A stretch of DNA of 64,000 nt from Escherichia coli (GTDB taxonomy: Bacteria; Pseudomonadota; Gammaproteobacteria; Enterobacterales; Enterobacteriaceae): assembly GCF_041886205.1 (NCBI RefSeq), contig NZ_CP169029.1; one strand, given 5' to 3'. Shown here one piece after another: positions 21,383 to 44,599 of this stretch. Under the pieces are notes generated by a model. It made no database searches. It was not told the DNA's origin and saw only the letters and a list, made by a program, of their open reading frames with translations. Position numbers and translations under genes: made by a program. Position 1 is the first letter of the stretch. Every line of letters begins with the position of its first letter.

Positions 21383-21396
21383 AGGAGTATTACTTG

Positions 21397-22434: not shown

Positions 22435-22465
22435 GTTTTCATGAATGATCTTCGGAAGGATGTGA

Positions 22466-23410: not shown

Positions 23411-23895
23411 GTTACTCCTCAACTGAAACATCGACTTATACCACAACAGACGTTGAAGCAGTCATGCGACGCATCACAGCTGACTTAGTGATGATTGCCG
23501 CCAGTACCGGTGCGATAACTGAATCAAAAGCACGTGAGTATGCTCACGATATAGAACTCTTAGCAAAAAATGGATATCTGGATTACGTCGATGTGACCCT
23601 TATAAGCAATGGCGTTGAACAGAAAGCAACCCGGTTTCATGTGAATGAGTCCGGAGAATTGGCAAATGACAGACCTGGAGACGCTCGTTGGCCGAGAATT
23701 CAGGGGGCTTATCTGCGGATTGTTGTGAACAACCGGAGTACCTACGATCAGGCTGCGAGGCAAAAGCTTTCAGGTAAGATGAAAATATCGTGGTCGCCAT
23801 GTAGTGATGACATCAGTCATTCAGGTTTGACCCAAAGTGGTGGTCGTGAATATTCCAGCAATGGTTATGGTATGCAACGTAAGGATTACAATTAA
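23407..23895 (+). CDS. Small protein (162 aa), possibly HORMA-like (Cap7-type); assignment from position and size only
   Basis: Translationally coupled (ATGA overlap) between the nucleotidyltransferase and the AAA+ ATPase. Confidence 0.35.
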   Translation: MSYSSTETSTYTTTDVEAVMRRITADLVMIAASTGAITESKAREYAHDIELLAKNGYLDYVDVTLISNGVEQKATRFHVNESGELANDRPGDARWPRIQGAYLRIVVNNRSTYDQAARQKLSGKMKISWSPCSDDISHSGLTQSGGREYSSNGYGMQRKDYN

Positions 23896-24791: not shown

Positions 24792-24848
24792 GGCCCCATT
24801 TCTTAATCAACTGATATACTATAAAAATCAACTCCAATTCCGGTACAT

Positions 24849-25451
24849 TTGTTGATTTACGGTGCACTTCTTGCAAGCAGGAACTATATGAGAACTGATA
24901 AAGAAATTTTCGTTTCAGTTGATGTGGAAACATCAGGCCCTATTCCGGGGAAATACAGTATGTTATCGATAGGTGCTTGTGTGGCATTTGAACCATCAAA
25001 GCAATTTTCATGTTACCTTAAACCGATATCTGAAGATTTTATCCCTGCGGCTATGGAAGTGACTGGGTTATCGCTGGAGAAGTTGCACGTCGATGGTTTG
25101 GATCCTGTTGATGCAATGGTTCAATTTAAAGAATGGATTAATTCGGTCGTAAAGGAAGATGAGACTGTAGTTTTTGTTGGTTTCAATGCTTCATTTGACT
25201 GGAGCTTTATTAATTATTATTTCCATGTATATTTAGGTGATAATCCTTTTGGCATCGCAGCACTCGATATAAAATCAATGTATTTTGGCGTTTCTCACGC
25301 CTCATGGAGATTAACACGTTCTAGTGAAATAGCGAAAGTTGTCAAACCTGAGACATATGGTGATCATGATGCATTACATGATGCCCGATATCAGGCTGAA
25401 CTATTCCGGTTGATCGATAAATTGAGCGAGAAGAAAAAATTAGATCGATGA
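24849..25451 (+). CDS. DEDDh-family 3'-5' exonuclease (DnaQ-like fold); likely start at Met 24888
   Basis: Exo [11 protein letters not shown], Exo [11 protein letters not shown], Exo [17 protein letters not shown]. Confidence 0.75.
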
Positions 25452-27225: not shown

Positions 27226-27330
27226 CATCCTCATGGTGCCTTGGTTATCTCTCACCGAGGGAATATCAACGTCACTCGGTAACGTTAACTTAAGCTCAAC
27301 GGCTGTCTGGATATAGTGGTTCAAGGGCAC

Positions 27331-27487
27331 CTAAGGGCCTTATTTACGGTGTTTTCGCTGATTGGTTTACGCGGGTCATGTGCTCCCGTAAAGACCAGAC
27401 CATTTTCAACTGCCCATGTCTGAAGTTTTATCAGTATGGCTACAGCCTGTTTGCTGAGTGGCACAAGATGTGGTGTTCGCATCTTAT
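27331..27487 (-). pseudogene. Internal fragment of a P4-type integrase gene
   Basis: ~155 bp at ~93% identity to 43341-43497 within the intact integrase, same orientation. Confidence 0.7.
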
Positions 27488-27692: not shown

Positions 27693-30600
27693 GTGAAGTA
27701 TCAGATAGTAGGTGGTGCTGGCCTGCACCGCAGCGAAACCAAAACAGTTGATATGATGGTTAAGCAGTTACCAGATAGTTGGTTTGGCTATGCTGGCTTA
27801 GTTGTTACTGATAGCCAAGGGTCGATGGAAATCGATATGCTAATTATTACTGCTGACCGTCTGCTATTAGTCGAGCTTAAAGAGTGGAATGGTAACATCA
27901 CATTTGAAGGGGGGAAGTGGCTGCAAAATGGTAAGTCACGAGGCAAAAGTCCCTATCAGATCAAGCGTGAGCATGCACTGCGACTAAAAGATTTGTTGCA
28001 GGAAGAGTTATCTCGTAAGCTGGGTTACTTTTTGCATGTTGAGGCTCATGTAGTGCTGTGTGGCACAGCTGGTCCTGAAAACTTGCCATTAAGTGAGAGG
28101 CGCTATGTTCATACCCGTGATGAATTCTTGACTATAGGTAACCCAAAAAATTACGAAAAGCTGGTGCAACACACTAACTTTTTTCATCTTTTTGAAGGGG
28201 GAAAGCCTCGACCAAATTCTGATGAGGCATTACCTATAATTAAGTCCTTCTTTGAAGGACCAAAAGTCAGGCCTTTGCCACTAAAAGAAAGCGGTTATCT
28301 TGCGAACGATAAGCCATTCTTTAGTCACCCTCACATGGTCTACAACGAATTCAGGGCTACCCACAAAGACAATAGTCAACACAGAGGTCTGCTACGGCAG
28401 TGGAACTTTGATGCCTTGGGTGTAGCAAACGCAATGCAAACATTGTGGGCTGAGATAGCTCTGCGTGAGACTCGAGTCGGTCGCCTAGTTCGTCATGGCA
28501 GCGCAACTATGCAGGATTATATGTTGCGTGCTGTAAGGGAACTATCCGAGGAGGATATAACTGATGATGCCCGTGAGCTGTATGAGTTACGCCGTAGTTT
28601 TAGCCGATTAGATGAGATTCTAGATAGCGAAGCTGACGGATGGAGTAAATCTGAGCGTATTGATCGCGTTCGTGCATTATTAGCTCCATTCTCGGAATTA
28701 CATAGCTTGGGTATCAGTCATTGTGATATTGACCCGCACAATCTATGGTACGCAGGGGATCAGAAGAGCATTGTCGTTACTGGCTTTGGCGCAGCCTCAC
28801 TGGAGGGACATAATAGCCTAGAGTCATTGCGTCCGATATTGCAAAGTGCTCCATATATTTTGCCCGAAGATGCTTTTGAAGAAGCAGTTGAGCCCTATCG
28901 CCTAGATGTATTCATGTTGGCTGTAATTGCTTATCGTATTTGTTTTGCAGGTGAATCATTACTGACTCCTGGACAGATGCCTGAATGGAGAGCTCCATTA
29001 ACTGATCCTTTTAGCGGTATTCTAAATAGCTGGTTTGAGCAAGCTCTTAACCTTGAGCCAAGTAAACGCTTTCCACGTGCGGACATAATGCTCAATGAGT
29101 TTAATGCAGCTACTAAGGAACATAGCCAAGAATTTGATGAAGCTAACCAGATTTATCAAGAATTAAAGCAAAACAAATTCTTTCGCGAAGGGATGAACAG
29201 CGTTGGTGTGTTAATTGAGTTTCCTCCACTTCCTGAACAGTTGTCTATGGTTTACTCTGCTCTTGCTGCTATTGCTACGACTGGCAGCATCAGTTATCAC
29301 TGTGAACAAGGTGGGAAAGCTCTGCAGGTAAAATTGTGGGATGGTGTTATTTTGACCCCTCAACAACCTGGTGTTAACCGCCGTATCCACGCTTTTAAGC
29401 AACGGATCGATAAGCTTACGCATATAAATCTGCCAACTCCTAAGGTGCAGTCCTATGGACTATTAGGACAAGGCGGCTTGTATGTAGTGAGCGAGTATGT
29501 GGATGGCCTACCGTGGTCACAGTTTATTGCTGAGAACGTGTTAGTACAATCCCAACGTTTTACAATTGCGGAAAAGTTGATCAACACCATTCATGCTTTT
29601 CATGAAAAGCAGTTACCTCATGGAGATCTTTGCCCAGAGAAACTGCTGGTACAAGTCGGGGAGCAGACAGTAATTACTCTGATTGGATTGCTTGAATTCA
29701 GTGATGAATTAACTGCAGATAATCGCTACCAGCCAGAGAATCCCGAAAGTACTGATGCTTTTGGGCGAGATTGCTTTGCAGTATATCGTATGGTGGAGGA
29801 GCTATTTAGTGAAGATATGCCAGTACTGGTGCAGGCTGAGCTAGAACGCGCAAAACAAACCGTTGACGGTATACCTATCGCGCTCGATCCTTTGCTGCAG
29901 TCAATTCGAGCACCGGAACAAGCTGAGATTAATCAAGTTGTGGCGTCTGAGTCACAGGATAAGGTAATTCCTGTTTGCTGGGGCACAGATGATTGGCCGC
30001 AAGAAGTGAAGCTTCTAGAACAAAATGATGGGATCTATTATTTTCAATGTAACTGGTCATCGAACCCACGCTTTGCGCATGAATTGCGTTGTTACATCAC
30101 TGGCCTAGGAGAGCGGCTATTGATAGACTTAGATCCTGATAATCGCACTATTAATAGAATAGTGTATGAAAAAGGATTATCGATCGAAGAAAGTATAAAG
30201 GCTGGTAAATATTCCCAGGCTAAAATTAATACTCAACTTTCATTACAACGTGGCTCACTTAATCAGCGTAATACTTTTATTGAACTACTGTTTAACCTCG
30301 AGCCAGTAATTGATGCCATCATTGAGCGAGCTAATCCTAATCAAGAGATGGATGAAGATGACTTCGATAGTAGTGAGTCAAGCCCAATTGAGTTATGGCA
30401 GGCATTATCTGATACAGAAGTAGACCTACGAGATATAGTCAACATCGACTCTACTGACTTTCAGGAATCACCGAGTGGTTGCTTACTCTACCCATATACT
30501 ACGGAATCCGGTGCTGACCTCAGCTTTGAACTTGATGATAAGATCATTGTTTATATTAAAGATAAGCGTGAATCAGTGCAATTAGGGGAATTGCAGCTAA

Positions 30601-32651
30601 GTGAGACTACGCCGAGTCTATTGGCTATTCGCTTTGATTTTGATGCTGCTCGTAAGCGAATTAGTAGCGGCAGCCAGCTACAATTGGAATCGATCCGTGA
30701 CAAATCATCAAGAGAGTTGCGTCAAAGAGCCCTTCAACGGGTAATTGAAAACAAAGCAGAGATCCAGCATCTGCCACAGTATTTTGATTACCACCAGAAA
30801 CCCTGCATGCAGCAAATGCAACCGCGGCCATCCGCGGAGACATTACGCGCACTTTATGATCAGCCTGGACAACGTTTTAATGAACAGCAGCTAATGGCAT
30901 TTCAACAGTTGGTCGAGTTTGGACCAGTTGGAGTTCTGCAGGGACCACCTGGAACAGGTAAAACAACATTTATTTCAAAATTTATTCACTATCTGTATCA
31001 ACATTGCGGTGTGAATAACATTCTTTTGGTCGGGCAATCCCATGCCTCTGTTGATAATGTAGCCATCAAGGCTCGAGAGCTCTGCCATACGAAAGGAATG
31101 GAACTGGATACAGTACGTATTGGTAATGAACTTATGATTGATGAGGGTATGCTAAGTGTTGCAACTAAAGCTCTTCAGCGACAGATTCAGCATAAATTTC
31201 ACCGTGAATATGATCTGCGAGTTAGCTCCCTAGGAAAGCGCCTAGGGATGGCCCCATTATTAGTCCAACAGTTATGTCAGTTACATCGTACGCTGAATCC
31301 CTTGATGGTGACATATGGCCAATATAGCCGTGAGCTGGATAAAGTAGAACAAATAAAGAGTAGTAGTATTAGTCATCAAGAGCGACTGGCTGAATTATTA
31401 GAACAAAGCAATCAGCTTAAACTGCGAACACAAGAAATTATTAACTCAATATTCGATGACAGCTTGCTGAAAACTCTTGTCTATGATGAAACCTTGATAA
31501 GACAGTTGGCTGAGCAAGTTGCCATACAATACAATTATAACAATCCAGAGAACCTTGAACGTTTTATGCAGCTATTGGAAATGAGCCAAGAGTGGATGGA
31601 TGTATTACGCGGCGGCGAGGCTGGATTTGATCGATTTATGTTCAAAAGTAAGCGATTGGTTTGTGGAACTCTTGTTGGTGTTGGGAATCGTCGACTAGAA
31701 CTAGCTGAGTCCAGCTTTGATTGGGTAATAGTTGATGAGGCTGGCCGAGCACAAGCTGCTGAATTGATGGTAGCGCTGCAATCAGGCAAGCGGGTGCTGT
31801 TGGTAGGGGATCATAAACAATTGCCACCATTCTATCATCAACAGCATCTTAAGTTAGCCTCTAAGAAATTAGAACTCGGGAAAGGGATCTTTTATGAGTC
31901 TGATTTTGAACGTGCTTTTAAAGCAACAGGCGGCGTAACACTCGATACTCAATATCGAATGGTAGAACCAATTGGCGAGTTAGTATCGGAGTGCTTTTAC
32001 GCTCAAGATATCGGTAAACTGCATTCATCGAGGAAAGTCTCGCCAGATTGGTATTCCAAGTTACCAATCCCTTGGAACAAAACTGTTACTTGGATCGATA
32101 GTTCGAGCCCTAATGAAGCAGGTGCAGAAGAACATAAGGGTAATGGTCGTTACTATAATCAACGAGAAGTCCGGCTACTGCTAGAGGCTTTGCAGTCATT
32201 GTCGAGTGATGGCTGCATTGCACAGCTTGAGCAAACTATTACCACAGAACAGCCATATCCTATTGGTATAATCACAATGTATCGTCAGCAAAAAGAGGAA
32301 ATTGACAATGCTATCAGTCGGGCTGAATGGGCTGCATCGTTACGTGGTTTGATCAAGATCGATACCGTTGATTCATATCAGGGCCATGAAAACAAGATAA
32401 TTATCCTCAGTCTGGTTCGCGATAATCCCAACAAACTACAAGGTTTCCTGCGCGACGCGCCGCGAATAAACGTTGCTATTTCGCGAGCTCAAGAAAGGTT
32501 ATTGATTCTGGGAGCAAGGCGTATGTGGTCAAAGACCAATAATGATTCAGCACTTGGAAACGTTCATGAATTTATTAGTAAACAGGTTGCAGTAGATGAA
32601 CCCAACTACCAAATCCTGTGTGGTCAAAGTCTGCTTGGAGATAACAACTAA
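27693..32651 (+). CDS. 1652-aa multidomain protein: N-terminal NERD-like domain, two protein-kinase-like domains, C-terminal SF1 (Upf1/DNA2-like) helicase
   Basis: GTG start with AGGAG RBS; NERD-like EIDMLIITADRLLLVELKEW; kinase-like HCDIDPHN...TGFG...DVFMLAVIAY and HGDLCPEKLLV...DAFGRDCFAVY; helicase Walker [10 protein letters not shown], Walker B VIVDEAG, motifs LVGDHKQLPP, DSYQGHE, VAISRAQERLLILG. Confidence 0.8.
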   Translation: MKYQIVGGAGLHRSETKTVDMMVKQLPDSWFGYAGLVVTDSQGSMEIDMLIITADRLLLVELKEWNGNITFEGGKWLQNGKSRGKSPYQIKREHALRLKDLLQEELSRKLGYFLHVEAHVVLCGTAGPENLPLSERRYVHTRDEFLTIGNPKNYEKLVQHTNFFHLFEGGKPRPNSDEALPIIKSFFEGPKVRPLPLKESGYLANDKPFFSHPHMVYNEFRATHKDNSQHRGLLRQWNFDALGVANAMQTLWAEIALRETRVGRLVRHGSATMQDYMLRAVRELSEEDITDDARELYELRRSFSRLDEILDSEADGWSKSERIDRVRALLAPFSELHSLGISHCDIDPHNLWYAGDQKSIVVTGFGAASLEGHNSLESLRPILQSAPYILPEDAFEEAVEPYRLDVFMLAVIAYRICFAGESLLTPGQMPEWRAPLTDPFSGILNSWFEQALNLEPSKRFPRADIMLNEFNAATKEHSQEFDEANQIYQELKQNKFFREGMNSVGVLIEFPPLPEQLSMVYSALAAIATTGSISYHCEQGGKALQVKLWDGVILTPQQPGVNRRIHAFKQRIDKLTHINLPTPKVQSYGLLGQGGLYVVSEYVDGLPWSQFIAENVLVQSQRFTIAEKLINTIHAFHEKQLPHGDLCPEKLLVQVGEQTVITLIGLLEFSDELTADNRYQPENPESTDAFGRDCFAVYRMVEELFSEDMPVLVQAELERAKQTVDGIPIALDPLLQSIRAPEQAEINQVVASESQDKVIPVCWGTDDWPQEVKLLEQNDGIYYFQCNWSSNPRFAHELRCYITGLGERLLIDLDPDNRTINRIVYEKGLSIEESIKAGKYSQAKINTQLSLQRGSLNQRNTFIELLFNLEPVIDAIIERANPNQEMDEDDFDSSESSPIELWQALSDTEVDLRDIVNIDSTDFQESPSGCLLYPYTTESGADLSFELDDKIIVYIKDKRESVQLGELQLSETTPSLLAIRFDFDAARKRISSGSQLQLESIRDKSSRELRQRALQRVIENKAEIQHLPQYFDYHQKPCMQQMQPRPSAETLRALYDQPGQRFNEQQLMAFQQLVEFGPVGVLQGPPGTGKTTFISKFIHYLYQHCGVNNILLVGQSHASVDNVAIKARELCHTKGMELDTVRIGNELMIDEGMLSVATKALQRQIQHKFHREYDLRVSSLGKRLGMAPLLVQQLCQLHRTLNPLMVTYGQYSRELDKVEQIKSSSISHQERLAELLEQSNQLKLRTQEIINSIFDDSLLKTLVYDETLIRQLAEQVAIQYNYNNPENLERFMQLLEMSQEWMDVLRGGEAGFDRFMFKSKRLVCGTLVGVGNRRLELAESSFDWVIVDEAGRAQAAELMVALQSGKRVLLVGDHKQLPPFYHQQHLKLASKKLELGKGIFYESDFERAFKATGGVTLDTQYRMVEPIGELVSECFYAQDIGKLHSSRKVSPDWYSKLPIPWNKTVTWIDSSSPNEAGAEEHKGNGRYYNQREVRLLLEALQSLSSDGCIAQLEQTITTEQPYPIGIITMYRQQKEEIDNAISRAEWAASLRGLIKIDTVDSYQGHENKIIILSLVRDNPNKLQGFLRDAPRINVAISRAQERLLILGARRMWSKTNNDSALGNVHEFISKQVAVDEPNYQILCGQSLLGDNN

Positions 32652-34198
32652 TGTCAGAACCACGTCTGGGTAATCTGATTACCGTTTTACTACCTGCGCG
32701 TAGTTACAAGATCAACTGCGCTTTGACCACTGAAAAACTGATGCCTGGAATTGAACAGTTTGCATGTCGCTTGCTGCTGATTTTTGATCAACTCTATCCC
32801 AGCGAGTTACAGAATTACTTTGGTCTAACTGATCGTGAGCGAGAGGTATTGCTTGATGGGTTGCTGGCTAACAGACTGATCAACATTAATCCTGATGGGC
32901 ATATTGAGGCTAGCTCATTCCTACGTAAGCATGCAGCTAATAATGGTGGGAAGCCAAGTTTAGTTAAATATCAAGAATGTACGGAGGAAGTTGCATTCGA
33001 TCTACTAACTCTTTCGATATGTAAACCGCAACCAAATCGTCGTTTTACTTCTGGACTGCCAGAGCTATTGCCGCGGCATCAGATCGGGGGAGATGCTGCT
33101 GCGGTAACAGAGGCTTTTAGTTCCCAGTTTAGGCACCATCTTTTGCTCAGCCGCAACAGCGAGTATGAGCGTCAACGGACTAAATTATATAAGATAATGG
33201 GCTGTAGTTCGCATGAGATGGTGCAGCTCCCAATAGAGATAGAGGTTAGCTACGGTGTTTCTGCTGGGAGCATTGAGCCGCAGAAATTTACTCGTTCCTA
33301 TGAATATTTAGGTAACACCCGGCTGCCGCTTTCAAACGAGCTGGAAGCTCATATCGCAGATTTTTTGGGAGAACATAAACTAGATGAATTCGGTATCGAC
33401 TGTGAAGATTTCTGTAAACTAGCAAATGATAAAGTGTTGTTACAATTTGCTAATGGTTATAAGTTCAACTATTCCGGCTGGATAGAGGCTCGTGAACAAC
33501 GTAAAACTGGCTACGGTACTTCATTGACTACCGGCATGTTAGGGGCTGTTTATTTGCCGCACAATTCTAAGCTGTTCATTAGTATGTTGCATAATGCATT
33601 ACGTGATTATATAGGTAAAACAGCTCCAAAAGCGCTGTGGTATAGCAGTAAAGTACCACTGTGGGGAGCTAATGGTAGTCAACTTTCGCGTTTTACTCGC
33701 GCTCTAGGCGATATACTTGGCAATTATGCCGATGATAAGATTGCTCGCATTTCGCTTTTACACTCAAGTGCAGATGAAGGTGAAAAACGTCAAGAGCGTA
33801 AGCGGCACTTAGGTCGTTTTCCTACCGGTATTGGCCTTACTTCAGAGGCTAAATTTGATCGTTTGGAGATCCTCTTAATTCCTGATGTGATTGCTTTGGT
33901 GCAATACCACGGTCAACCTAATTCTGATAGTGCATTAACCCTGCCGATTGGTTATATAACTGTTGAGCCAGAGCGTTTAGAATTACTTAAAAAACTAATG
34001 ATTAAGCGAACTGAAGGGGCTGTTGCAACCATTACTTGGTCTGAATCAAAATTTGAAAATTTAGCTTCGCTATTACCTGTTGAGTTTCTGATTAAACTGA
34101 ATAAGAAAAGCGGTGAAGATGTGGATGCTGCAATAAAAAAAATGCAGATCTATAACCGTGCTGAAACCGCACGGGCAATTTTATCGCTACGCAAGTAG
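32651..34198 (+). CDS. 515-aa protein of unknown function, translationally coupled to the upstream gene
   Basis: Start ATG overlaps the upstream TAA (TAATG); no recognisable motifs. Confidence 0.6.
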   Translation: MSEPRLGNLITVLLPARSYKINCALTTEKLMPGIEQFACRLLLIFDQLYPSELQNYFGLTDREREVLLDGLLANRLININPDGHIEASSFLRKHAANNGGKPSLVKYQECTEEVAFDLLTLSICKPQPNRRFTSGLPELLPRHQIGGDAAAVTEAFSSQFRHHLLLSRNSEYERQRTKLYKIMGCSSHEMVQLPIEIEVSYGVSAGSIEPQKFTRSYEYLGNTRLPLSNELEAHIADFLGEHKLDEFGIDCEDFCKLANDKVLLQFANGYKFNYSGWIEAREQRKTGYGTSLTTGMLGAVYLPHNSKLFISMLHNALRDYIGKTAPKALWYSSKVPLWGANGSQLSRFTRALGDILGNYADDKIARISLLHSSADEGEKRQERKRHLGRFPTGIGLTSEAKFDRLEILLIPDVIALVQYHGQPNSDSALTLPIGYITVEPERLELLKKLMIKRTEGAVATITWSESKFENLASLLPVEFLIKLNKKSGEDVDAAIKKMQIYNRAETARAILSLRK

Positions 34199-34412: not shown

Positions 34413-34739
34413 ATGACTAAAAATACACGTTTTTCCCCCGAAGTCCGTCAACGGGCAGTTCGTATGGTTCTGGAAAGTCAGGGCGAATATGACTCACAAT
34501 GGACAGCAATTTGTTCTATTGCCCCTAAGATTGGCTGTACACCGGAGACTCTGCACGTCTGGGTACTCCAGCATGAGCAGGATATTGGGGGCGGTGATGG
34601 TGGTTTCACCACCACTGAACGTCAGCGTCTGAAAGAGCTGGAACGTGAAAATCGTGAACTGAGCCGCAGTAACGATATCCTTCGCCAGGCTTCCACTTAT
34701 TTTGCGAAGGCGGAGTTCGACCGCCCCTGGAAAAAATAA
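34413..34739 (+). CDS. IS3-family OrfA (IS629-like)
   Basis: 108 aa; MTKNTRFSPEVRQRAVRMVLESQGEYDSQW. Confidence 0.8.
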   Translation: MTKNTRFSPEVRQRAVRMVLESQGEYDSQWTAICSIAPKIGCTPETLHVWVLQHEQDIGGGDGGFTTTERQRLKELERENRELSRSNDILRQASTYFAKAEFDRPWKK

Positions 34740-35112
34740 TGCCACTGCTGGATAAGTCGCGTGAGCAGTACGGGATCGGACCGGTATGCAGTGAACTGCA
34801 TATTGCCCCGTCAACGTATTACCACTGTCAGCAACAGCGACATCATCCTGATAAACGCAATGCCCGTGCGCAGCGTGATGACTGGCTGAAGAAAAAGATA
34901 CCGTGCGTATACGATGTGCGTAAAGTCTGGCGTCAGTTGTTTCGGGAAGGTATCAGAGTGGCCAGATGCACTGTGGCACGTCTCATGGCGGTTATGGGGC
35001 TTGTCGGTGTTCTCTGGGGTAAAAGGTCCGCACTACCGTCAGCCGGAAAGCCGTTGCCGTAGACGACCGCGTAAACCGCCAGTTCGGGGCAAAGTCGTGG
35101 GTGGCTGATTTT
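34739..35112 (+). pseudogene. IS629-like OrfB, truncated and frameshifted, interrupted at ...ADFTY by a group II intron
   Basis: OrfB N-terminal homology across two frames, ending at the intron 5' end. Confidence 0.7.
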
Positions 35113-35644
35113 ACTTACGGTGTGCCCGGAGTTCAGGGTGAGCACGGATGCTGAAATGAACCATGAGTCTGTCTGGAATATGGAACAGATAACTCATGAC
35201 GAGAAGCCCAACAATCCCACCGGGTGTGACTGTGGTGAACCTGAGCGACTGTGACCTGCGGCATTCCCTAAGGATGATGTAACCCGCTGACAACGGGGAT
35301 TGAGGCGAGATCACTAAGCCGAGATGATCCTCAAGGTTGAGTGCTGAAAGGCTGAAGAACATGAACCCGTTAATCCGCCTCTGTGGGCTGAAAACGTCAC
35401 CACGGCCTACATGATCTGACAGGTCGTGCAGAAGTAACTGTCTGCGACACGTATGCGCGGGTCAGTCAAAGGTGTTCTGACATGTATGCAAAACACCGGG
35501 ACAGCAACGCCTATCACGCTCACGTTGCTGACTTCTGTCAACTTGCGGCAAGCAAGGACAAAGAGTGCGACGGGCAGCCTCCTCAGTATGTATGAGTTCA
35601 GACAGGTGAACTGGGGAAGGTCAGCGACGGATGTTAAGGAGGCA
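35113..35644 (+). mobile_element. Group II intron 5' fragment (no RT ORF; 3' part missing)
   Basis: Begins GTGTGCCCGG like the intron at 7598; structured GC-rich sequence, no long ORF. Confidence 0.55.
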
Positions 35645-35930
35645 GTAAGCGTCAACGGAGCACCGTATTGACGCTTATTTATTGGTGAGAACTACGTTTC
35701 ATGGCAGGAGTTCGTCAACACGGTTGGATAGTAATGCACGGCTCAGTTCGACACCCTGTCGGGCAAAGATTTCACTCTGACGATACAGTGGCAGGTGTTC
35801 GCAGTATTTTCCCGTTAACACGCGGGCAAGTAATCCGGGGCCGCGATACCACGCTCTATCGGGCAGGACGGCGCCAATGATAGCATTTATACAAGCAATT
35901 CTGGGAGCTTATAGATTGTGTGCAAAACTT
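35645..35930 (-). pseudogene. IS66-family tnpC fragment
   Basis: Minus-strand translation gives [35 protein letters not shown], matching the TnpC core. Confidence 0.6.
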
Positions 35931-36221
35931 TTGATAGCAGGAGGTTACAACAGTATTGATGAAAAAGATCATTCAAATCGATTTATATATTTTGTTAATG
36001 TTATCTGTTTTCAATCTAATAACCACGAATATAGCTAATTATAGGATGATTACTAGTTTTGCTACCCTATCAACCAAACGTTCACCGGACATTAGAAAAC
36101 ATGGAAATTTCTTGTTTTTAAATGCTTTTTACACCAATAGAAAAATTTACATTCCAAAATCATTAGTCTTTGCGTAATCAAAAGATGTAATGGTTTTTTT
36201 CCTTACTACTTCTAGATAATC

Positions 36222-36345
36222 CGCCCACTACAGCAACATCAACTTACGCTCATCTAAATGCTCCGCCTTATGGATATAAGCTACCCGCACTGAATTACAT
36301 TCCATGCGGCTCATCAGACGTCCAGTTGCTTTACTGTCTTCAGGG
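36222..36345 (-). pseudogene. 3' remnant of a second P4-type integrase gene
   Basis: Minus-strand translation ...MSRMECNSVRVAYIHKAEHLDERKLMLL* is homologous to the intact integrase C-terminal region; ~70% nucleotide identity. Confidence 0.6.
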
Positions 36346-36584
36346 GGATGCTCTTGTAATCCCAACCTCTCGTGCTTTCTGAGCATAACACATCCATGTT
36401 GCTGCGATTATCTCTTAAACCCGTCCTTACCATTTTTATTGATACGATAAGGAACCTTCATCATACATGATCGATTTTGTCGATCGATTCGATCGAATTT
36501 TCTCTTTTTACCCTGTCTTTTACATGGTTTTAAAATAAGCACCCCATTTATTGTTCGGGGAAAGTGATAGCAGAGGTAACTGAA

Positions 36585-37313
36585 ATGAAAAAGATTATTG
36601 CGGTTTCAGCACTTGCTGTGGCAGGCATGTTTTCAGCCCAGACCCTGGCTGATGAGAGCAAAACAGGCTTTTATATGACCGGTAAGGCGGGAACTTCCGT
36701 TTTATCTCTTTCCAACCAGCGTTTTGTCGAAGGTGAAGGAGAGTGGGCGGACAGATACAAAGGTGACGATGACCATGATACGGTATTCAGTGGCGGTATT
36801 GCGGCCGGTTATGATTTTTATCCGCAGTTCAGTATTCCGGTTCGTACAGAACTGGAGTTTTACGCTCGTGGAAATGCTGACACGAAATATAATCTTTATA
36901 AAGACGACTGGTCGCGTGGTGACCTGAAGAACGAGGTGTCAGTCAACACTCTGATGCTGAATGCGTACTATGACTTCCGGAATGACAGCTCATTCACACC
37001 ATGGGTATCTGCAGGGATTGGCTACGCCAGAATTCACCAGAAAACAACCGGTATCAGTACCTGGGATTACGGGTATGGATACAGTGGTCGTGAATCGTTG
37101 TCACGTTCAGGCTCTGCTGACAACTTCGCATGGAGCCTTGGCGCGGGTGTCCGCTATGACGTCACCCCGGATATCGCTCTGGACCTCAGCTATCGCTATC
37201 TTGATGCGGGTGACAGCAGTGTGAGTTACAAGGGCGAGTGGGGCGATAAATATAAATCAGAGGTTGATGTTAAAAGTCATGACATCCTGCTTGGTGTGAC
37301 TTATAACTTCTGA
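36585..37313 (+). CDS. Outer-membrane beta-barrel protein (signal peptide, C-terminal ...GVTYNF)
   Basis: N-terminal signal peptide MKKIIAVSALAVAGMFSAQTLA; alternating amphipathic strands; terminal aromatic residue. Confidence 0.6.
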   Translation: MKKIIAVSALAVAGMFSAQTLADESKTGFYMTGKAGTSVLSLSNQRFVEGEGEWADRYKGDDDHDTVFSGGIAAGYDFYPQFSIPVRTELEFYARGNADTKYNLYKDDWSRGDLKNEVSVNTLMLNAYYDFRNDSSFTPWVSAGIGYARIHQKTTGISTWDYGYGYSGRESLSRSGSADNFAWSLGAGVRYDVTPDIALDLSYRYLDAGDSSVSYKGEWGDKYKSEVDVKSHDILLGVTYNF

Positions 37314-37488
37314 CGACACTGCTTCTGAATGATAATTGCGCATATTTCTGCAATTAAGATAATTACGTATTTCTGTAATTAAAAAGGAACACCCTGCAGT
37401 AATATTATACTGCAGGGTTGTCTGTTATCTGCTTTACAGGATATTTCTGATTTTTATTATCTTATTCTCTTTATATTAAGATATTTCG

Positions 37489-38988
37489 ATGAGTATCATA
37501 AAACTATTTTTTCCGGACAATACATCCCGAATTTTATTGTTTTTATTCTTTTTTGTTGTTTCTGTCATAACCACAATTGCATGCGGATACACTGAGAAGA
37601 ATACCACCGGGAATGTGTTGCTGCTGTTCTTTCTTCTGCTTCTTGCACACAGAAATACCCTCACATCCATTACAGCGCTGTTATTTCTGTTCTGTTGTGC
37701 ACTGTATGCGCCTGCCGGTATGACGTACGGTAAAATCAACAACAGTTTTATTGTCGCGTTGTTGCAGACCACGGCTGATGAGGCAGCGGAGTTTACCGGG
37801 ATGATTCCTGTTTATCATTTTCTGGTCAGTGCCGCGATTCTGGTATTCATGGTGATTTTCTGGCGAACACACCACCGCGGTCACCGTAACTGGCTGGCAC
37901 TGCTGCTATTCGTATTATGCTCTGTAAACAGCTGGCCGTTGCGGATGGTTAAAGGAACCGTTGTGGGGACAACTGACACATTGCGTGAAATGCAGCGTTA
38001 TAAACAACTGAGTCAGCACGGGGCTGACAGCTGGAAAATCCTGCCGGGTGTACCGTTGTATGACACGATTGTTATTGTTACTGGTGAGAGTGTGCGCAGG
38101 GATTATATGTCGGTATATGGCTATCCCGTGCCAACCACACCGTGGCTGAATACTGCTCCCGGTTTATTTATTGACGGCTATACATCGGCAGCAGCCAGTA
38201 CCGTACCTTCCCTGAGCCGGACACTGATTTATGACTATGAGCAGAACCCTGATTCCGGCAACAACGTGGTGGCGCTGGCAGCAAAATCAGGATACAGCAC
38301 ATGGTGGATATCCAATCAGGGAAAACTGGGAGAGCATGACACACGCATCTCTGTTATTGCTTCTGATGCGGAGCATACCGTTTTCCTCAAGAAAGGCAGC
38401 TTCGCTTCCCGTAAAACGGATGATATGTTGTTGTTACAGGAAACAGAACGTGCGCTGGCGGATACATCCTCTCCGAAGGTGATTTTCCTGCACATGATTG
38501 GCTCTCATCCGAATCCGTGTGACCGACTTAACTCCTGGCCGAATCATTACCTGGAGCAGTATCCCCGAAAGATTGCCTGTTACCTCGCCAGCATCAGTAA
38601 ACTGGATAACTTTCTCGGTCAGCTTGATGGTATCCTTCGCCGGCATTCCCGTCATTTCGCCATGCTTTACTTTTCTGACCATGGACTGTCGGTCAGCGAC
38701 AGCGCTAATCCTGTTCATCATGATGGTCATGTGCAGGGAGGCTACAGCGTTCCCCTGATTATTACCGCCAGTGACATCACGTCTCATCAGTCCGTCAGCA
38801 GAAAAATCAGTGCCCGTCATTTCGCAGGTATTTTTCAGTGGCTGACCGGCATTCGTACTGAAAATATACCGCCATTCAATCCGCTGACAGACGAAGATAA
38901 TGAACCCGTTATGGTTTTTAACGGGGAGAGGAATGTACCGGCAGACAGTCTGAAACCGCAGCCTCTGATTCTTCCGGACAGAAGATAA
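37489..38988 (+). CDS. Phosphoethanolamine-transferase-family (sulfatase superfamily) membrane protein
   Basis: N-terminal TM helices; motif VIVTGESVRRDYMSVYGY...TSAAASTVPSLS typical of EptA/MCR-like enzymes. Confidence 0.65.
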   Translation: MSIIKLFFPDNTSRILLFLFFFVVSVITTIACGYTEKNTTGNVLLLFFLLLLAHRNTLTSITALLFLFCCALYAPAGMTYGKINNSFIVALLQTTADEAAEFTGMIPVYHFLVSAAILVFMVIFWRTHHRGHRNWLALLLFVLCSVNSWPLRMVKGTVVGTTDTLREMQRYKQLSQHGADSWKILPGVPLYDTIVIVTGESVRRDYMSVYGYPVPTTPWLNTAPGLFIDGYTSAAASTVPSLSRTLIYDYEQNPDSGNNVVALAAKSGYSTWWISNQGKLGEHDTRISVIASDAEHTVFLKKGSFASRKTDDMLLLQETERALADTSSPKVIFLHMIGSHPNPCDRLNSWPNHYLEQYPRKIACYLASISKLDNFLGQLDGILRRHSRHFAMLYFSDHGLSVSDSANPVHHDGHVQGGYSVPLIITASDITSHQSVSRKISARHFAGIFQWLTGIRTENIPPFNPLTDEDNEPVMVFNGERNVPADSLKPQPLILPDRR

Positions 38989-39096
38989 TCATGTCGGTAT
39001 GAATGTTATAATTAAGGACCGTGCAATAATAGCCATTCCATTCAGCCATCTTACGCTCGAAAACAATCGATAAGATGGCTACTCACCATTCCTGCT

Positions 39097-42000
39097 CTAA
39101 ACCTGACGCCTCTCAAGACTATTATAAATAGCCTCAATCTCACCCTTCAGGTTATCACCGCAATAAACCATTGAGGTATCGTATCGTTCATATCGCGCTT
39201 CCCGTGTCGCACTAAACCAGTTGAACGATCCCACGCACAGCAAACCATCATCACCAATAACAATTTTGCTATGAACACGGTTTACCAGCTTTGTAGCAAT
39301 ACCCAGCGCATTCAGTTTCTCCAGCGCCGCTTTAAAGTTTTGCTGCTTCTCTTTTCGCTTCTCAAAATCATTATGTTCAGTGTTGTAGCTTCTGTCAGTG
39401 ACTATCGTGACGTTAATTCCACGTGAACACGCCGCAATCATGGAATCAAGAAAACCTGTTTGCTCCAGCCTTTGCCAGGTCAGCCATGGAGAAACTATCG
39501 TGATGTGTTTACTGGTATTTTCAAATGTCTGATTCAGGAAATTATCATGTTGCTCCACACCATGAAGTGTGTAGATTTTGGTCCCGGAGGTTTTTAAATC
39601 CTTACGCTCTTTATAATCAAAAGAGAGCGCATTCTTCTCTGACTCAAAGAGGTATTTTGCCAGTAATCCCCGTGGAGATGAGGCTGGCTGGACCTCAAAC
39701 AGGTCCATATCGCCGAAGACCAGAAAACTGTCCTTCGCACGGGAGACTGCAACATTCAGCATGCTGTTATCGCTATCAATAAACCCGCCGTCTTCATGTT
39801 TTGAATAGACTGGCGAGAATATCACAATCGCTCTTTCCGCTCCCTGAAGAGAGTGCACGGTGCCCACTGTGAGCGACTTTTCATTCGAGCCTGTACTGAT
39901 ACCTTGTTTGCCCAGCGCCTGTTTGATAGTGGATACCTGAGCGCTAAAAGGCGTCACGATACCGACAACTTCATGAAGCGATTTACCGTAATGCGCTTCA
40001 ATATTTTGTTGGTTCTCTGCCAACCAGACCGCTATCGTTTCAGCCTCAAGCAAATTATATCGACTTCCACTACTTGCCAGCTCTCCTTTACCATCAATAT
40101 GGAGATACCCCATTGCGGGCATTAAATTGCTCTCTTCACGCCCTCTTTTAGGCAACAACTTACCGTGATAGCAGAGCGTATTACAGTATCCAATAATATT
40201 GTCGTAGCACCGGCGGTGTTCATATAGGGACATACCACGAGCCAGTTCGGGATCATATTGATAGCGCGAAGCAAACTGCGCTATTTTCATAACGCTGCCA
40301 GATGCGGCACTTTTACCAAGGTCTGCGATTGCCGTATATTTCTCGGTAATCTCTTCTTGCGTACTGCCAGACAGAATTTTTTCCGCCAGCATGTTACCGA
40401 CATCAATCGCAGGAGCAATACTCCATATTGGCGGGAGCTGCTCCGTATCGCCAATCACTAATGCCTTCTTAGCTAATGCAAACGAGGCAGCAGCCACTTC
40501 AGGAAGCACCTGCCCGGCTTCATCGACAATGAGTAAATCGGCAAAATCATACAAATAACTTTTCTCGAATTTACGCTGTCCTTTGTGCTCACTTATCTGC
40601 ATATTGCCGGGCAGCATATAGCATGTCATCACCACACATGGAGTGAGTTTCATTCGACGTTGCCAACGGGCAGTTACCCCTTTAGCGCCTTTTTTCTTCT
40701 TCTCTTCCTGCAGATCATCAATGCTGGCCATATCCATCAGCCAACGACCTTCCCAGTAGTGAGTCGTCAGTAAAAATGCAGGGAAGCGAATCTGCGTATC
40801 AGCCAGTTCATCGGCCTGTGAGAAGCTCAGTTCCTCGTCGCCCTCATACCCTAAATTAAGAGCCAGTCTCTGCCACTCCTGAACCGCCTGCTGTTCTTTA
40901 AGAATGATTTCATGGGCGGAATCAATCTGCTGCCGGTATGTTGTTTGCTCGCGCTCAGCGGAATTGAGCAGCCCATCAATATTACGTTCGATAGTTTCAG
41001 GATCAGACCACTGATTTCCTGCAATCAGCGCACCTAATTTATCTTCGAGAAACAGCTGTATTTGGTACTGTCGCTTACTGCGAACCACCGGGAGCCAGGA
41101 AAATAATGAATAGATCAGTGATTCACCGGCGCGATATTTTTTCCATTCCGTTTTAGCACTTTTCAGTAGAGTGATTTTTTGTTCTTGTCCGGAAAGTAAT
41201 TTATTTAAATTATCGAGATATTGCTCAATGTCGTTAGCAATAAGCTCACGCGCAGCCCGTACCTGGCTTAACGTTTGCCATGTTGCGTTCAGTCTTATCA
41301 GTTGCTCGGATTTTGCTGCCAACTGACCATGCAGGAGTTCAATGACCTTTTCAGGGGATGAACAATCTTTTTCAGGAAAGGCTGCCTTAGCCTTCTCCAG
41401 ATAAAACAGCAGTGCATCCTCTACATACTCTTTTGACTCAACCTGGTTGAAGAAATCTTCAGTTTGATATTTTTTGGCTGCCTCAGCTTTACGAGTGCTT
41501 GAGGGAAAATAAGCGCCGAAGCTTTTCAGCTCAGGTAACCATCGTCCGGCCATTGCACCAGTGCCCTGTGAAAAATCTTTCCCGAACGCTTCGATAATGT
41601 TCGTTACAGCCTGGTTGTTCGTTGAAGTCGCGATAATTACCGGAGGCTCAGATTTTTCGAGAGCCGCTCTGGCCCACTGCGTGGCGATGATAGAAAGCAC
41701 CAGCGTGGTTTTTCCGGTTCCCGGAGGTCCATTAACAGCAAGGATATCGCCATGTCTTGCATCCAGAAAATGGCTTAAGGCATCGCGCTGAGCCTTTGCC
41801 AGCGGAAACTTATCTCCGGAGTGTCCAAGCCTGTCGCTGAATTTTGCGCCTGGGGCCAGCAAAGACTCTGCAGCATGAACCTCTCGCGAGGCGAAGCGAT
41901 TGAAGAGCGGCACAACCTTCTTGCAAACAAGCAGGTGATCATAAAGAGAAAGGATATGGAAACAGGCACCGCCAGATTGCGCCGTTTTAACAATATAACC

Positions 42001-42612
42001 GTGCTCAGCGAGTTCATATTGCTCAGGATTTTTAATCCAGTCGCCGGCAACGTTCTTCAGCAGCCTCTCTGAATCATCCAGATATTGACGCCACTCCTGC
42101 TGCAAGGCTGCATATCGTGCTTCCCGTTCTTCATCCGTTTCGGCAGTCTTATCAATGCCGTCATCAAAGTTGATAGAGAACGAGGTATGGATTGTCTTGT
42201 ATTTGTCATACTGCCCAATCTCACCAATCGAAAATGCTCCTTTTGGCAAAGGTTCAAGCAGGTCTCTGGGAATGGAGGTCGCTGGCGTCGGATATAAAAA
42301 ACCCTCACGGCTTAGCAAGGCTGGCGTCACTATCGGGGTAACAATATCAGGCGCGCCTGCGGAACGGTCCTTACCATGCTGCAGTAACCGGAAATAAACT
42401 TTTGGGCGCAAGATGACATCGACCGTTTCGACATCGTCTTTTTCTCCCTTAAAAAATTTACTGACAATCGCTTCGTCAAGACGTCCCGCCGCTATCCCAT
42501 GCCAGTGAGTGAAATTTTTGGCGTCTTTCCGTTCAAAACTGCCCTTTCCTGACTCAGCATCCGCAAGCGAGTTGCGCCAGTATGAGGTAAACCCTAAAGC
42601 ATTTTCATCCAT
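39097..42612 (-). CDS. SF1 helicase fused to C-terminal PLD-family nuclease domain (Mokosh type II-like)
   Basis: 1171 aa; Walker [10 protein letters not shown], Walker B LIVDEAGQ, helicase motifs; C-terminal HxK-x4-D-x6-GSxN ([20 protein letters not shown]). Confidence 0.7.
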
Positions 42613-43063: not shown

Positions 43064-44326
43064 CTATTTTAATGGATTGTTAATTTTTGCATATTCAAAC
43101 GGACTGATACCCTTCTCCCGGTTCGCATCCAGAAAATCGGCCCACCATTGCAACATCAGTCGCCGTTCTTCCAGATGTTCTGCTTTATGGATATACGCAG
43201 CACGTACACCATTACGCTCCTGATGGCTCATCTGACGTTCCACAGCATCGCGGGACCACAAACCTGATTCAATCAATGCACTGCACGCCATCGCCCGGAA
43301 TCCATGGCCACAGACATCCTGGGTTGTGTCATACCCCATCACCCTCAGGGCTTTATTTACAGTATTTTCACTGATTGGTTTACGCGGGTCATGTGCTCCC
43401 GTAAAGATCAGACCATTTTCACCAGCCCATGTCTGTAGTTCTGCCAGTATGGCTACAGCCTGTTTGCTGAGTGGCACAAGATGTGGTGTTCGCATCTTGG
43501 AGCCCCGGTGTGAGAATTTTACGCCAGGCAGAGGTTCGCGTTCGGCTGGAATAGTCCACATGGCATTGTCAATATCAATTTCAGACCAGCGGGCGTATCT
43601 GAGTTCACTGGAACGAATAAAAACCAGTAAATTCAGCATAACTGCCAGTCGGGTGACAGGCTGGCCTTTATAACCGTCAATACGCGACAGAAGTTCAGGC
43701 AGGCGTGAAAGATCCAGTGCAGGGCGATGCTGGCGTTTTACCGTGGTCAATGCACCAGCCATATCCAGAGCCGGGTTATATCTGATGATGCCAGACTGTA
43801 CGGCATAACGCATTACAGCAGATATTCTTTGCTGCAGACGACTGGCGATTTCATAAATTTGTTTAGCTTCTGCAGCACGAACAGGGATAAGCAGGTCCGG
43901 GGTACTGAGTGTTGTGATATCCCGGTTGCCGATAAAGGGGAAAACGTGTGTCTCGAGGCTTTTGAGTACTTTATCGCTGTGTGATTGTGCCCATTGTTTA
44001 TTACTGGCATGCCAGCGTCGTGCAATATGTTCAAAAGAGAGTTGTAAATCAGGGACTACTTTTTTAGCTCTTTTCAGTTCGCAAGGGTCAATCCCCTCCG
44101 AAATCAGTTTTCGGGCCTCATCCCGTTTTGTACGAGCTTCGGAGAGAGAAACTTCTGGATACACACCAAGTGCCAGAGTCTTCTCCTTACCCAGAATACG
44201 ATAACGGAGACGCCAGTAACGGGAACCATTAGGATGAACCAGTAGGAACATGCCAGCCCCGTCAGTGAGTTTATAAGCCTTGTCAGTGGGCTTTGCAGCC
44301 CGGATTTTTGCGTCAGTCAGTGCCAT
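43064..44326 (-). CDS. int: Tyrosine recombinase, P4-type integrase
   Basis: Starts MALTDAKIRAAKPTDKAYKLTDGAGMFLLV...; C-terminal catalytic region; adjacent to tRNA-Phe 3' end. Confidence 0.9.
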   Translation of the reverse strand: MALTDAKIRAAKPTDKAYKLTDGAGMFLLVHPNGSRYWRLRYRILGKEKTLALGVYPEVSLSEARTKRDEARKLISEGIDPCELKRAKKVVPDLQLSFEHIARRWHASNKQWAQSHSDKVLKSLETHVFPFIGNRDITTLSTPDLLIPVRAAEAKQIYEIASRLQQRISAVMRYAVQSGIIRYNPALDMAGALTTVKRQHRPALDLSRLPELLSRIDGYKGQPVTRLAVMLNLLVFIRSSELRYARWSEIDIDNAMWTIPAEREPLPGVKFSHRGSKMRTPHLVPLSKQAVAILAELQTWAGENGLIFTGAHDPRKPISENTVNKALRVMGYDTTQDVCGHGFRAMACSALIESGLWSRDAVERQMSHQERNGVRAAYIHKAEHLEERRLMLQWWADFLDANREKGISPFEYAKINNPLK

Positions 44327-44493
44327 AGTATAGCCTTCTGAATGCGTTAAAGAGGGTACAAATTCTGTCGAACTGGGGTATGCCCGCAATTATACCCACA
44401 CAATGGGGTTGATGTGGGGGGAATCTGGTTGAGTTCGGTAGAATTGATTTGTAGGTAGAACGCTTAAATTGTGGCGTTCTGAAACGAAAAACG

Positions 44494-44523: not shown

Positions 44524-44599
44524 TGGTGCCCGGACTCGGAATCGAACCAAGGACACGGGGATTTTCAATCCCCTGCTCTACCGACTGAGCTATCCGGGC
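44524..44599 (-). tRNA. pheV: tRNA-Phe (GAA)
   Basis: 76-nt match to the canonical E. coli tRNA-Phe including CCA end; location next to yqgA and speC. Confidence 0.95.

Follow-up and report, generated by a model that had tools for sequence, protein, structure and literature searches.

Two adjacent genes in an Escherichia coli genomic island raise the question of what their products do in the cell envelope, whether they act together, and why they are found among anti-phage systems. The window, i.e. the whole stretch of 64,000 nucleotides of E. coli DNA that was analyzed, contains them together with the elements listed in Table 1. A preliminary description of the locus proposed a secreted β-barrel protein and a sulfatase-superfamily, phosphoethanolamine (PEtN)-transferase-like membrane enzyme, carried as island cargo between a helicase-PLD gene and a decayed integrase remnant, and suggested that such a pair could remodel the cell surface and affect, among other traits, polymyxin susceptibility. 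The reading we favor, with a probability of roughly 65%, is that these are independent envelope genes inherited together which, with the integrase, make up the proximal backbone of islands with a P4-type integrase at pheV, pheU and leuX.

Table 1. Features of the island segment in the window (sequence-based assignments).
Feature	Position	Strand	Details
Mokosh type I system	27693..34198	+	MkoA 27693-32651, MkoB 32651-34198; distal to the integrase remnant
P4-type integrase remnant	36159..36329	-	decayed 3′ end; left edge of the conserved block
Predicted Hra-family outer membrane protein (OMP) adhesin gene	36585..37313	+	242 aa
Perfect hairpin	37391..37418	+	11-bp stem, in a 175-bp spacer; consensus scan
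Promoter-like site	37433-37460		after the hairpin; consensus scan
Predicted OpgE-like PEtN-transferase-family gene, intact yjgX type	37489..38988	+	499 aa
Helicase-PLD gene, MkoC of Mokosh type II anti-phage system	39097..42612	-	in the slot between transferase and integrase
P4-type tyrosine integrase, intact	43064..44389	-	Pfam Arm-DNA-bind_3, Phage_int_M, Phage_integrase
tRNA-Phe pheV	44524..44599	-	adjoins yqgA; island attachment site; ARAGORN, Rfam

The position of the pair between the helicase-PLD gene and the integrase remnant was borne out. A tblastn search with the intact integrase as query aligned the remnant to residues 382-438 of 441 at 60% identity (E=5e-16), with an internal stop, and according to PGAP an integrase remnant adjoins the OMP gene also in BN01, SCU-102, ZYB39, CUVET21-424, CUWW11, ESY002 and SC422. 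MkoC was matched over its full length (PADLOC PDLC03924, 1684 bits; Pfam AAA_11, AAA_12 and PLDc_2), and MkoA and MkoB of the type I system scored 1303.6 bits (PDLC03921) and 207 bits (PDLC03923), respectively. The coordinates given for the intact integrase are those of the maximal ORF, and its PGAP homologues are 421 aa long; against the NCBIfam domain model PRK09692 it obtained 249.9 bits (E=3.5e-74), under the 434-bit cutoff. The yqgA-speC-nupG flank is 100% identical to E. coli strains. In the window, no second pheV 3′ direct repeat, which would mark the far island end, was found besides the tRNA copy itself, so that the distal boundary of the island lies beyond the window or has decayed. 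An Rfam scan of positions 36000-39100 gave no matches. Opposite-strand and out-of-frame ORFs within both genes were taken as shadow ORFs, since the HMM matches fall in the two annotated frames and no overlapping gene is annotated by PGAP, which in hundreds of RefSeq genomes labels the pair 'outer membrane protein' and 'phosphoethanolamine transferase'.

The first gene agrees with the secreted β-barrel of the preliminary description. Its ATG start codon has GAGG 8 nt upstream, the N-terminus of the protein (MKKIIAVSALAVAGMFSAQTLA) includes a predicted Sec signal peptide at approximately residues 1-22, the C-terminus reads TYNF with a terminal Phe, and the match to Pfam OMP_b-brl reached 87.8 bits (cutoff 28.7). 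In the AlphaFold2 model (mean pLDDT 88.8) a signal helix at residues 4-21 is followed by eight long strands, which form a predicted barrel whose four long hairpins are exposed, and Foldseek matched this model to the PDB structures of OmpA-TM, NspA, Ail and OmpX. The protein is 82% identical to UTI89 Hek, 67% to the Tia allele in L023, 64% to a cluster named Tia by NCBI (P0030) and 94% to cluster P0001, and many E. coli protein clusters are 55-94% identical to it; Hra family members are ~65-90% identical to one another (PMC5539235). Its relatedness to Tia and Hek, its signal peptide and its eight-stranded barrel with four surface loops are features of this family, and by sequence it is a member of the Hra (Tia/Hek/Hra1/Hes) adhesins and invasins, a known virulence-associated family. 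Heat-resistant hemagglutination, autoaggregation and epithelial adhesion and invasion are phenotypes of its relatives (PMC5539235, PMC2553418). By analogy with Hes, Hra1, Hek, Tia and PagN, the OMP would mediate hemagglutination, autoaggregation, adhesion or invasion, and the neighboring gene would not be needed for it; these relatives are 65-82% identical to the OMP, and the differences are mostly in the exposed loops.

The present allele is a mosaic, with a Tia-like N-terminal part of ~45 aa (signal peptide and first strand) and a Hek-like remainder. The gene is strongly polymorphic, and only 14 of the 1816 matching records reach at least 95% DNA identity. A crude Nei-Gojobori analysis detected no positive selection on the OMP (omega 0.2-0.3, the exposed parts included), and dS between alleles was also very high; the polymorphism reflects old alleles swapped by recombination.

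The second gene was likewise described correctly as encoding a sulfatase-superfamily, PEtN-transferase-like membrane enzyme. The protein matches Pfam Sulfatase (123.5 bits, E=1.4e-35) and, at 22.0 bits, is just under the 22.3-bit cutoff of EptA_B_N. It has five N-terminal hydrophobic segments (residues 15-33, 43-61, 58-76, 106-124 and 136-154), and its AlphaFold2 model (pLDDT 89.6) includes the helices of a five-TM domain and a periplasmic sulfatase-fold domain. The best PDB folds were EcEptC, full-length MCR-1 (9nww) and NmEptA (5fgn), with Foldseek E-values of 1e-20 to 1e-16, and the alignments to the latter two span the full length. The motifs GES (E200), T238, HxxGSH (H335, H340) and SDHG (D397, H398) align with EcEptC and MCR-1, and these six residues are invariant in 51 transferase homologues. 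HMM classification, one of the checks that the preliminary description had proposed, returned OMP_b-brl and Sulfatase for the two proteins and did not place the transferase in a family unrelated to PEtN transfer. With five TM helices and a sulfatase-fold domain that carries a Thr nucleophile and metal ligands, as is typical of PEtN transferases, the protein is predicted to be an inner-membrane, metal-dependent enzyme of this family. If it follows the mechanism of EptA and MCR-1, Thr238 would receive PEtN from phosphatidylethanolamine, forming a covalent intermediate, and the enzyme would then hand it to an acceptor facing the periplasm. A literature search found no experimental work on the yjgX-type transferase clade.

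To which acceptor the placement within the family points can be read from the comparison with the K-12 paralogues, where OpgE scored 234 bits, EptA 45 bits and all paralogues other than OpgE at most 106 bits. The similarity to OpgE extends across the full length, membrane domain included, and in a neighbor-joining tree the transferase is sister to the OpgE clade (bootstrap 100/100) and outside the EptA/EptB clade. Judged by these relationships, it sits in the OpgE branch and does not group with the lipid A enzymes EptA and MCR. OpgE (YbiP) is the PEtN transferase for osmoregulated periplasmic glucans (PMC3818809). As OpgE is the sole close characterized relative, the acceptor would most likely be a periplasmic glucan or another non-lipid A glycan, and the 30% identity between the two proteins does not by itself fix it. 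This identity, the island location, the separate sister clade and the fact that the genome retains its own opgE set the transferase apart from OpgE orthologues; at best, it would act like OpgE.

How the pair is distributed speaks to its role in the island. At coverage of at least 80%, the transferase-adhesin block was found in 1045 of 5426 complete E. coli genomes, including UTI89, and its conserved edges are at ~36194 and ~38989. All 12 loci that were sampled, at pheV, pheU and leuX, kept the order integrase-[slot]-transferase-OMP, as do LAA and SE-PAI, two islands described in the literature; these loci and islands are the basis for the backbone order, and selC is reported in the literature as a further insertion site of this island family. 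The slot between transferase and integrase is empty in BN01, CUVET21-424, ESY002 and SC422; in L023 it is occupied by a TPR gene, in LAA and SE-PAI by sisA/shiA, and here by Mokosh II. Variable cargo is also found on the far side of the integrase remnant, here Mokosh I. The defense cargo of the present locus consists of two Mokosh types and a CBASS. The island context given in the preliminary description therefore stands, but the pair is not variable cargo, being the conserved integrase-proximal part at all three tRNA genes. It is the constant part of an E. coli tRNA-island family around which the cargo varies, a part already known.

Within the block, the hairpin between the two genes may be a weak terminator, as its sequence suggests. 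It was rejected as a conserved element because it is confined to the closest relatives (L002 and L027) and absent from L001, L023 and L026. In a Salmonella island the pair is adjacent and co-directional at 58%/55% identity, which is compatible with some functional link, and the K-12 core pair ompX-opgE hints that adjacency of an OMP and an OpgE-type gene may not be accidental. A possible common origin with ompX-opgE was not adopted, the similarity between the OMP and OmpX being marginal (E=3e-4) and the two pairs differing in orientation.

Several alternatives to independent backbone genes were weighed, two of which concern the transferase. It might act on lipid A or on the LPS core, as EptA, MCR and EptC do, and so change susceptibility to polymyxin or cationic peptides; its fold and catalytic residues are those of MCR-1, EptA and EptC, its best NCBIfam match is a CptA subfamily model, and some database entries call close homologues 'lipid A phosphoethanolamine transferase'. 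That best match, however, amounts to 105 bits where the cutoff is 404, the EptA models gave 38-55 bits (cutoffs 561-660) and the MCR models 16-35 bits (cutoffs ~1075-1250), so that the protein is under every cutoff of the lipid A, MCR, CptA and EptB models by a wide margin. These missed cutoffs, together with the OpgE grouping, argue against the suggested polymyxin link, and we regard a lipid A role as highly improbable. More than a quarter of complete E. coli genomes, UTI89 among them, carry the gene, and a widespread intrinsic polymyxin effect of something so common would probably not have escaped attention. The transferase might instead be a functionless passenger heading for decay. The K-12 pseudogene yjgX, 91% identical to the transferase in amino acids over residues 177-499, is a truncated, frameshifted copy, of which the present gene is by this similarity the intact form; 3054 genomes have some match to the gene, only 1450 have at least 80% of it and ~1600 have fragments only, and several abundant truncated protein clusters exist. 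The present copy, in contrast, is full length, with 100% nucleotide identity to the ZYB39 gene and identity to WP_000022454.1-type genes, has all the invariant catalytic residues, and shows a dN/dS of 0.08-0.17 against intact alleles, indicative of purifying selection, the gene being conserved unlike the polymorphic adhesin gene. A mere passenger is thus very unlikely; the transferase is often decayed, and its benefit may be conditional.

The other alternatives concern the pair. By analogy with PptA acting on pilin and Campylobacter EptC on FlgG, the transferase could decorate the adhesin itself or the surrounding LPS core and thereby modulate adhesion, aggregation or antigenicity. With every sampled E. 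coli Hra allele, whether Tia- or Hek-type, and in the Salmonella island, the two genes are adjacent and point the same way, and ompX-opgE offers a parallel in the core genome. Yet Hes alone confers agglutination, autoaggregation and adherence, the phenotypes of the family, on HB101 (PMC5539235), and either gene is found alone in more distant taxa, the transferase on an IncI-like plasmid and in Enterobacter lignolyticus, the OMP in Providencia and Yersinia; the synteny of distant homologues gave no support for an obligate pair beyond the E. coli and Salmonella islands. No co-evolution of the alleles was seen, their similarities being uncorrelated (transferase 99.6% and OMP 84% in SCU-102, 93.8% for both in BN01), and a recombination break lies between the genes, which are also separated by the hairpin and a separate promoter-like site. 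In GN06758 an IS3 is inserted between them, and in ZYB39 an IS100 interrupts the OMP gene only. Since each gene occurs without the other in distant relatives and the alleles assort independently, nothing ties the two functionally, and we consider such coupling unlikely. Quite unlikely, too, is a broader proposal, in which the transferase is an unrecognized envelope modifier whose PEtN, placed on a glycan of the periplasm or the surface or on the adhesin itself, alters phage adsorption or host recognition, and which is kept as an island anchor by cooperating with the hypervariable Hra adhesin. A further possibility is that the pair is an anti-phage surface-modification module and for this reason resides among defense systems. 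Mokosh II and Mokosh I flank it here, Druantia, type I RM, DptFGH and two unclassified neighbors (a DUF262 protein and a TerB-N/ATPase/DEAD-helicase cluster) elsewhere, and the OMP is very polymorphic, a frequent trait of surface proteins exposed to phages. Against this, the PADLOC scan that strongly matched the neighboring MkoC, MkoA and MkoB gave zero matches for the OMP and the transferase, virulence operons (pap, afa-type fimbriae, subAB, ato/iha) are found equally often beside the pair, and within the island the pair is constant while the defense genes vary, all of which makes this explanation improbable.

Reading the two as independent envelope genes of the island backbone corrects their labels: the barrel protein is a predicted adhesin of the Tia/Hek type, which is used as a virulence marker, and the PEtN transferase is not to be taken for a determinant of polymyxin resistance. 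At the constant end of a very common E. coli island family, whose variable slots hold defense systems or virulence operons, the pair offers a convenient landmark when islands are mined. A bloodstream-infection GWAS flagged the yjgX-type transferase via its linkage to pap. The question that this transferase raises, namely which molecule receives its predicted modification, is modest in scope.

Among characterized enzymes, EptA (PmrC), MCR-1 to MCR-13, EptB and EptC (CptA) share with the transferase the superfamily fold and the catalytic Thr/Glu/Asp-His/His set, but the similarity is limited to the catalytic domain (45-93 bits). OpgE shares the five-TM plus sulfatase-fold architecture, the full-length similarity and the sister clade; it is a core gene, whereas the transferase is island- or plasmid-borne and ~30 residues shorter. 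The OMP, like the members of the Hra family (Hra1/Hek, Hes, Tia, Hra2 and Salmonella PagN), is an eight-stranded barrel of ~25 kDa with a signal peptide, and, like LAA hes and SE-PAI tia, its gene lies next to a 'sulfatase' ORF and a P4-type integrase; the OMP differs from the known members in its mosaic Tia/Hek allele, which diverges chiefly in the exposed hairpins. The transferase is the same gene as K-12 yjgX, which lies in KpLE2, an element at leuX, and as the ORF labeled 'sulfatase' in SE-PAI, in LAA module I and in the leuX, pheV and pheU islands of UPEC. The present locus differs from those islands in its intact transferase, in a slot occupied by Mokosh II instead of shiA/sisA, and in a distal arm with defense systems, where SE-PAI, LAA and the UPEC islands have toxins or fimbriae.

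The yqgA-speC-nupG flank of the window, an E. coli chromosome, is 100% identical to that of sequenced strains, and leftward from pheV the order is intact integrase, helicase-PLD gene, transferase, OMP (the barrel protein) and integrase remnant. The preliminary description had placed a pair of genes at 36585-38988; the ATG of the 242-aa ORF and the stop codon of the 499-aa ORF coincide exactly with its two ends, which confirms the observation. The adhesin/transferase finding is real but ordinary: RefSeq already annotates both genes, and UTI89 and published pathogenicity islands have the same arrangement. The features of the window are listed in the table.

Features of the pheV island and other annotated elements (window positions)
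Feature	Position	Strand	Remarks
CdiA-type filamentous haemagglutinin, C-terminal part	14-3406		VENN pre-toxin domain
Orphan VENN-toxin ORF	5944-7173		
CdiI_3 immunity gene	7170-7556		after the VENN-toxin ORF
Group II intron RNA domains	7673-7841, 7881-7957		Rfam RF02001 and RF01998, respectively
Group II intron reverse transcriptase/maturase	8003-8485, 8482-9294		split in two ORFs
CBASS with HORMA and TRIP13 partners	19907-25451		region including divergent effector and regulator
PN-superfamily/TIR-like effector	19907-21382	-	divergently placed
WYL regulator	21397-22296	-	beside CBASS
CBASS oligonucleotide cyclase	22466-23410		
CBASS HORMA	23407-23895		
CBASS TRIP13	23895-24791		
CBASS exonuclease-type effector	24849-25451		
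Second integrase fragment	27330-27485	-	aa 298-349, 92% identical to intact pheV integrase
MkoA and MkoB, Mokosh type I	27693-34198		1652 aa and 515 aa; PADLOC
IS3-family transposase remnant	34413-35118		between Mokosh I and integrase remnant
ALIL frameshifting pseudoknot of IS3 remnant	34694-34810		Rfam RF01497, 107 bits
IS66 fragment	~35714-35874		
Decayed integrase C-terminal end	36159-36329	-	aa 382-438 of 441, 60% identity, internal stop
OMP ORF	36585-37313	+	242 aa
Transferase ORF	37489-38988	+	499 aa
Helicase-PLD gene = MkoC, Mokosh type II	39097-42612	-	1171 aa; PADLOC 1684 bits, full length
Intact P4-type integrase	43064-44389	-	Arm-DNA-bind_3, Phage_int_M, Phage_integrase domains
tRNA-Phe (pheV)	44524-44599	-	adjoining yqgA
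Two tandem naRNA4 (CssrE) matches	56432-56589		core-genome part; just above Rfam gathering score

The pair had been described as island cargo, a framing that does not hold: it is island backbone. The order tRNA-integrase-[slot]-transferase-OMP was constant in all twelve loci examined, inserted at pheV, pheU or leuX, while the contents around the pair vary. The slot, the segment between integrase and transferase, is occupied by the helicase-PLD gene in the window, SCU-102, UTI89, ZYB39, GN06758, 98889 and CUWW11, by a TPR gene in the E. coli locus with a Tia allele, and is empty in BN01, CUVET21-424, ESY002 and SC422. Distal to the OMP gene, usually past the same integrase remnant, the compared loci carry Druantia, type I RM, Mokosh I, DptFGH, a TerB/ATPase/helicase cluster, DUF262 or virulence operons (pap, afa-type fimbriae). 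By alignment to these loci the conserved block extends from ~36194 to ~38989. Of 5426 complete E. coli genomes, 1045 carry the 2.9-kb block at a coverage of at least 80% (megablast sensitivity); a more sensitive search reported nearly complete OMP genes in 1752 genomes and nearly complete transferase genes in 1450, with transferase fragments only in a further ~1600. The island of ZYB39 (NZ_CP098234.1; locus L027, 27586-30273) is 99.9% identical over the whole 24.7 kb and its transferase 100% identical, but it lies at pheU, not pheV, and its adhesin gene is split by IS100 while the transferase is intact. In three other loci the adhesin gene is preceded by an additional hypothetical ORF of 369 nt (L002, 8273-8641; L026, 7860-8228; L029, 5494-5862), which is absent from the window and BN01.

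Similar arrangements appear in the literature. SE-PAI reads tRNA-integrase-shiA-orf(sulfatase)-tia-subAB2, and its authors proposed the sulfatase ORF and tia as the initial genes (PMC7371111); LAA module I reads pheV-int-sisA-(YhbX fragment)-sulfatase-hes (PMC5539235 supplement). In a survey of insertions at selC, pheU and pheV, every site had a YjgX/YhbX-type transferase (PMC6174562), and 'putative opgE' genes beside integrases and the pap operon were picked up in a GWAS of bloodstream infection (PMC8946752). The island in the window appears to be built of modules accreted in tandem, each with an integrase remnant at its end; the second integrase fragment has the CBASS/IS3 region on one side and Mokosh I on the other. 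In the PADLOC scan no model matches either gene of the pair. One and the same island carries two Mokosh anti-phage systems, type I (MkoA and MkoB) and type II (MkoC), flanking the pair.

[quoted passage not shown] A GAGG ribosome-binding site precedes the start, the N-terminus is a typical signal peptide (MKKIIAVSALAVAGMFSAQTLA), the C-terminal end is ...TYNF, and Pfam OMP_b-brl scores 87.8 bits (cutoff 28.7). The AlphaFold2 model (55-sequence alignment, pLDDT 88.8) has eight long strands, its closest solved folds being the small 8-stranded barrels OmpA-TM, NspA, Ail and OmpX. Sequence and structure prediction together establish a predicted Sec-exported, 8-stranded Hra-family barrel. It is 82% identical to Hek of UPEC UTI89, 64% to the NCBI cluster 'invasion outer membrane protein Tia' and 67% to a Tia allele, and the allele is a mosaic, Tia-like over the signal peptide and first strand (86% identity, vs 36-45% to Hek-type alleles) and Hek-like over the remainder. 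The published relatives Hra1/Hek, Hes, Tia and PagN serve in adhesion, autoaggregation or invasion (PMC5539235, PMC2553418), and HB101 expressing Hes alone showed hemagglutination, autoaggregation, biofilm and adherence (PMC5539235). By analogy with these relatives, the barrel would act on its own as an adhesin or autoaggregation factor.

The other family assignment, a sulfatase-superfamily membrane enzyme resembling phosphoethanolamine (PEtN) transferases, was likewise borne out. The transferase has a Pfam Sulfatase domain (E=1.4e-35), a borderline match to EptA_B_N (22.0 bits, cutoff 22.3) and five N-terminal hydrophobic segments; its AF2 model (pLDDT 89.6) best matches the EcEptC periplasmic domain and full-length MCR-1 and NmEptA. 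The PEtN-transferase motifs are complete, namely GES (E200), the Thr nucleophile T238, HxxGSH (H335, H340) and SDHG (D397, H398), and these residues are invariant among 51 homologues. Sequence and modelling depict a 5-TM enzyme of sulfatase fold, under purifying selection, whose predicted PEtN-transferase active site is intact. As in characterised relatives, it would take PEtN from phosphatidylethanolamine onto Thr238 and then hand it to a periplasm-facing acceptor. The emphasis on polymyxin found no specific support: the transferase is below cutoff in all curated NCBIfam models for MCR and for PEtN transferases acting on lipid A, Kdo or heptose (top match the CptA subfamily, 105 bits vs cutoff 404). 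Among five K-12 paralogues it scores highest with OpgE (234 bits, 30% identity across full length), followed by YhbX (106), EptC (93), EptB (55) and EptA (45), and in a neighbour-joining tree its clade is sister to OpgE (bootstrap 100/100), excluding EptA/B/C and YhbX. OpgE adds PEtN to osmoregulated periplasmic glucans (PMC3818809), and the clade position suggests that the acceptor is more likely a periplasmic glucan, or some other glycan that is not lipid A, than lipid A itself. The K-12 pseudogene yjgX (KpLE2 element, leuX), 91% identical in amino acids over residues 177-499, is a decayed orthologue; because it is a pseudogene, K-12 data on it are uninformative on the polymyxin idea. A 53% identical paralogue (cluster of 1955 sequences) occurs on two plasmid-like E. 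coli contigs in an IncI-like context (Hok/Gef, exclusion protein, DotM_C), with no adjoining barrel protein.

The constant adjacency could mean that OMP and transferase are functionally coupled. The genes adjoin co-directionally with every Hra allele that was sampled in E. coli, and likewise in a Salmonella island whose transferase and OMP are 58% and 55% identical, respectively, to those of the window. However, distant homologues of each occur without the other: the transferase on the IncI-like plasmid and in Enterobacter lignolyticus (39%), the OMP in Providencia at metJ-rpmE and in Yersinia. The 175-bp spacer holds a hairpin and a separate promoter-like site, neither conserved, and some strains have IS elements between both genes or inside the OMP gene only.

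The histories of the two genes are also quite different, and the similarity among alleles of one gene does not follow that among alleles of the other. Typical nucleotide identity across E. coli is 60-90% for the OMP gene (1687 of 1816 records below 90%) and 90-99% for the transferase gene (151 records at 60-80%, 120 places on plasmids). For the same loci dS is 0.13-0.84 and 0.02-0.17, respectively, and dN/dS about 0.2-0.3 and 0.08-0.17. On these figures the OMP polymorphism looks like old alleles swapped by recombination, with a break between the two genes, and not like the outcome of co-evolution with the transferase.

A core-genome parallel to this pairing of a small barrel OMP with an OpgE-like enzyme exists in K-12 (L004, the MG1655 locus, 1451-3598), where ompX, which encodes an 8-stranded barrel, lies directly beside opgE in convergent orientation; the similarity of OmpX to the island OMP is marginal (E=3e-4).
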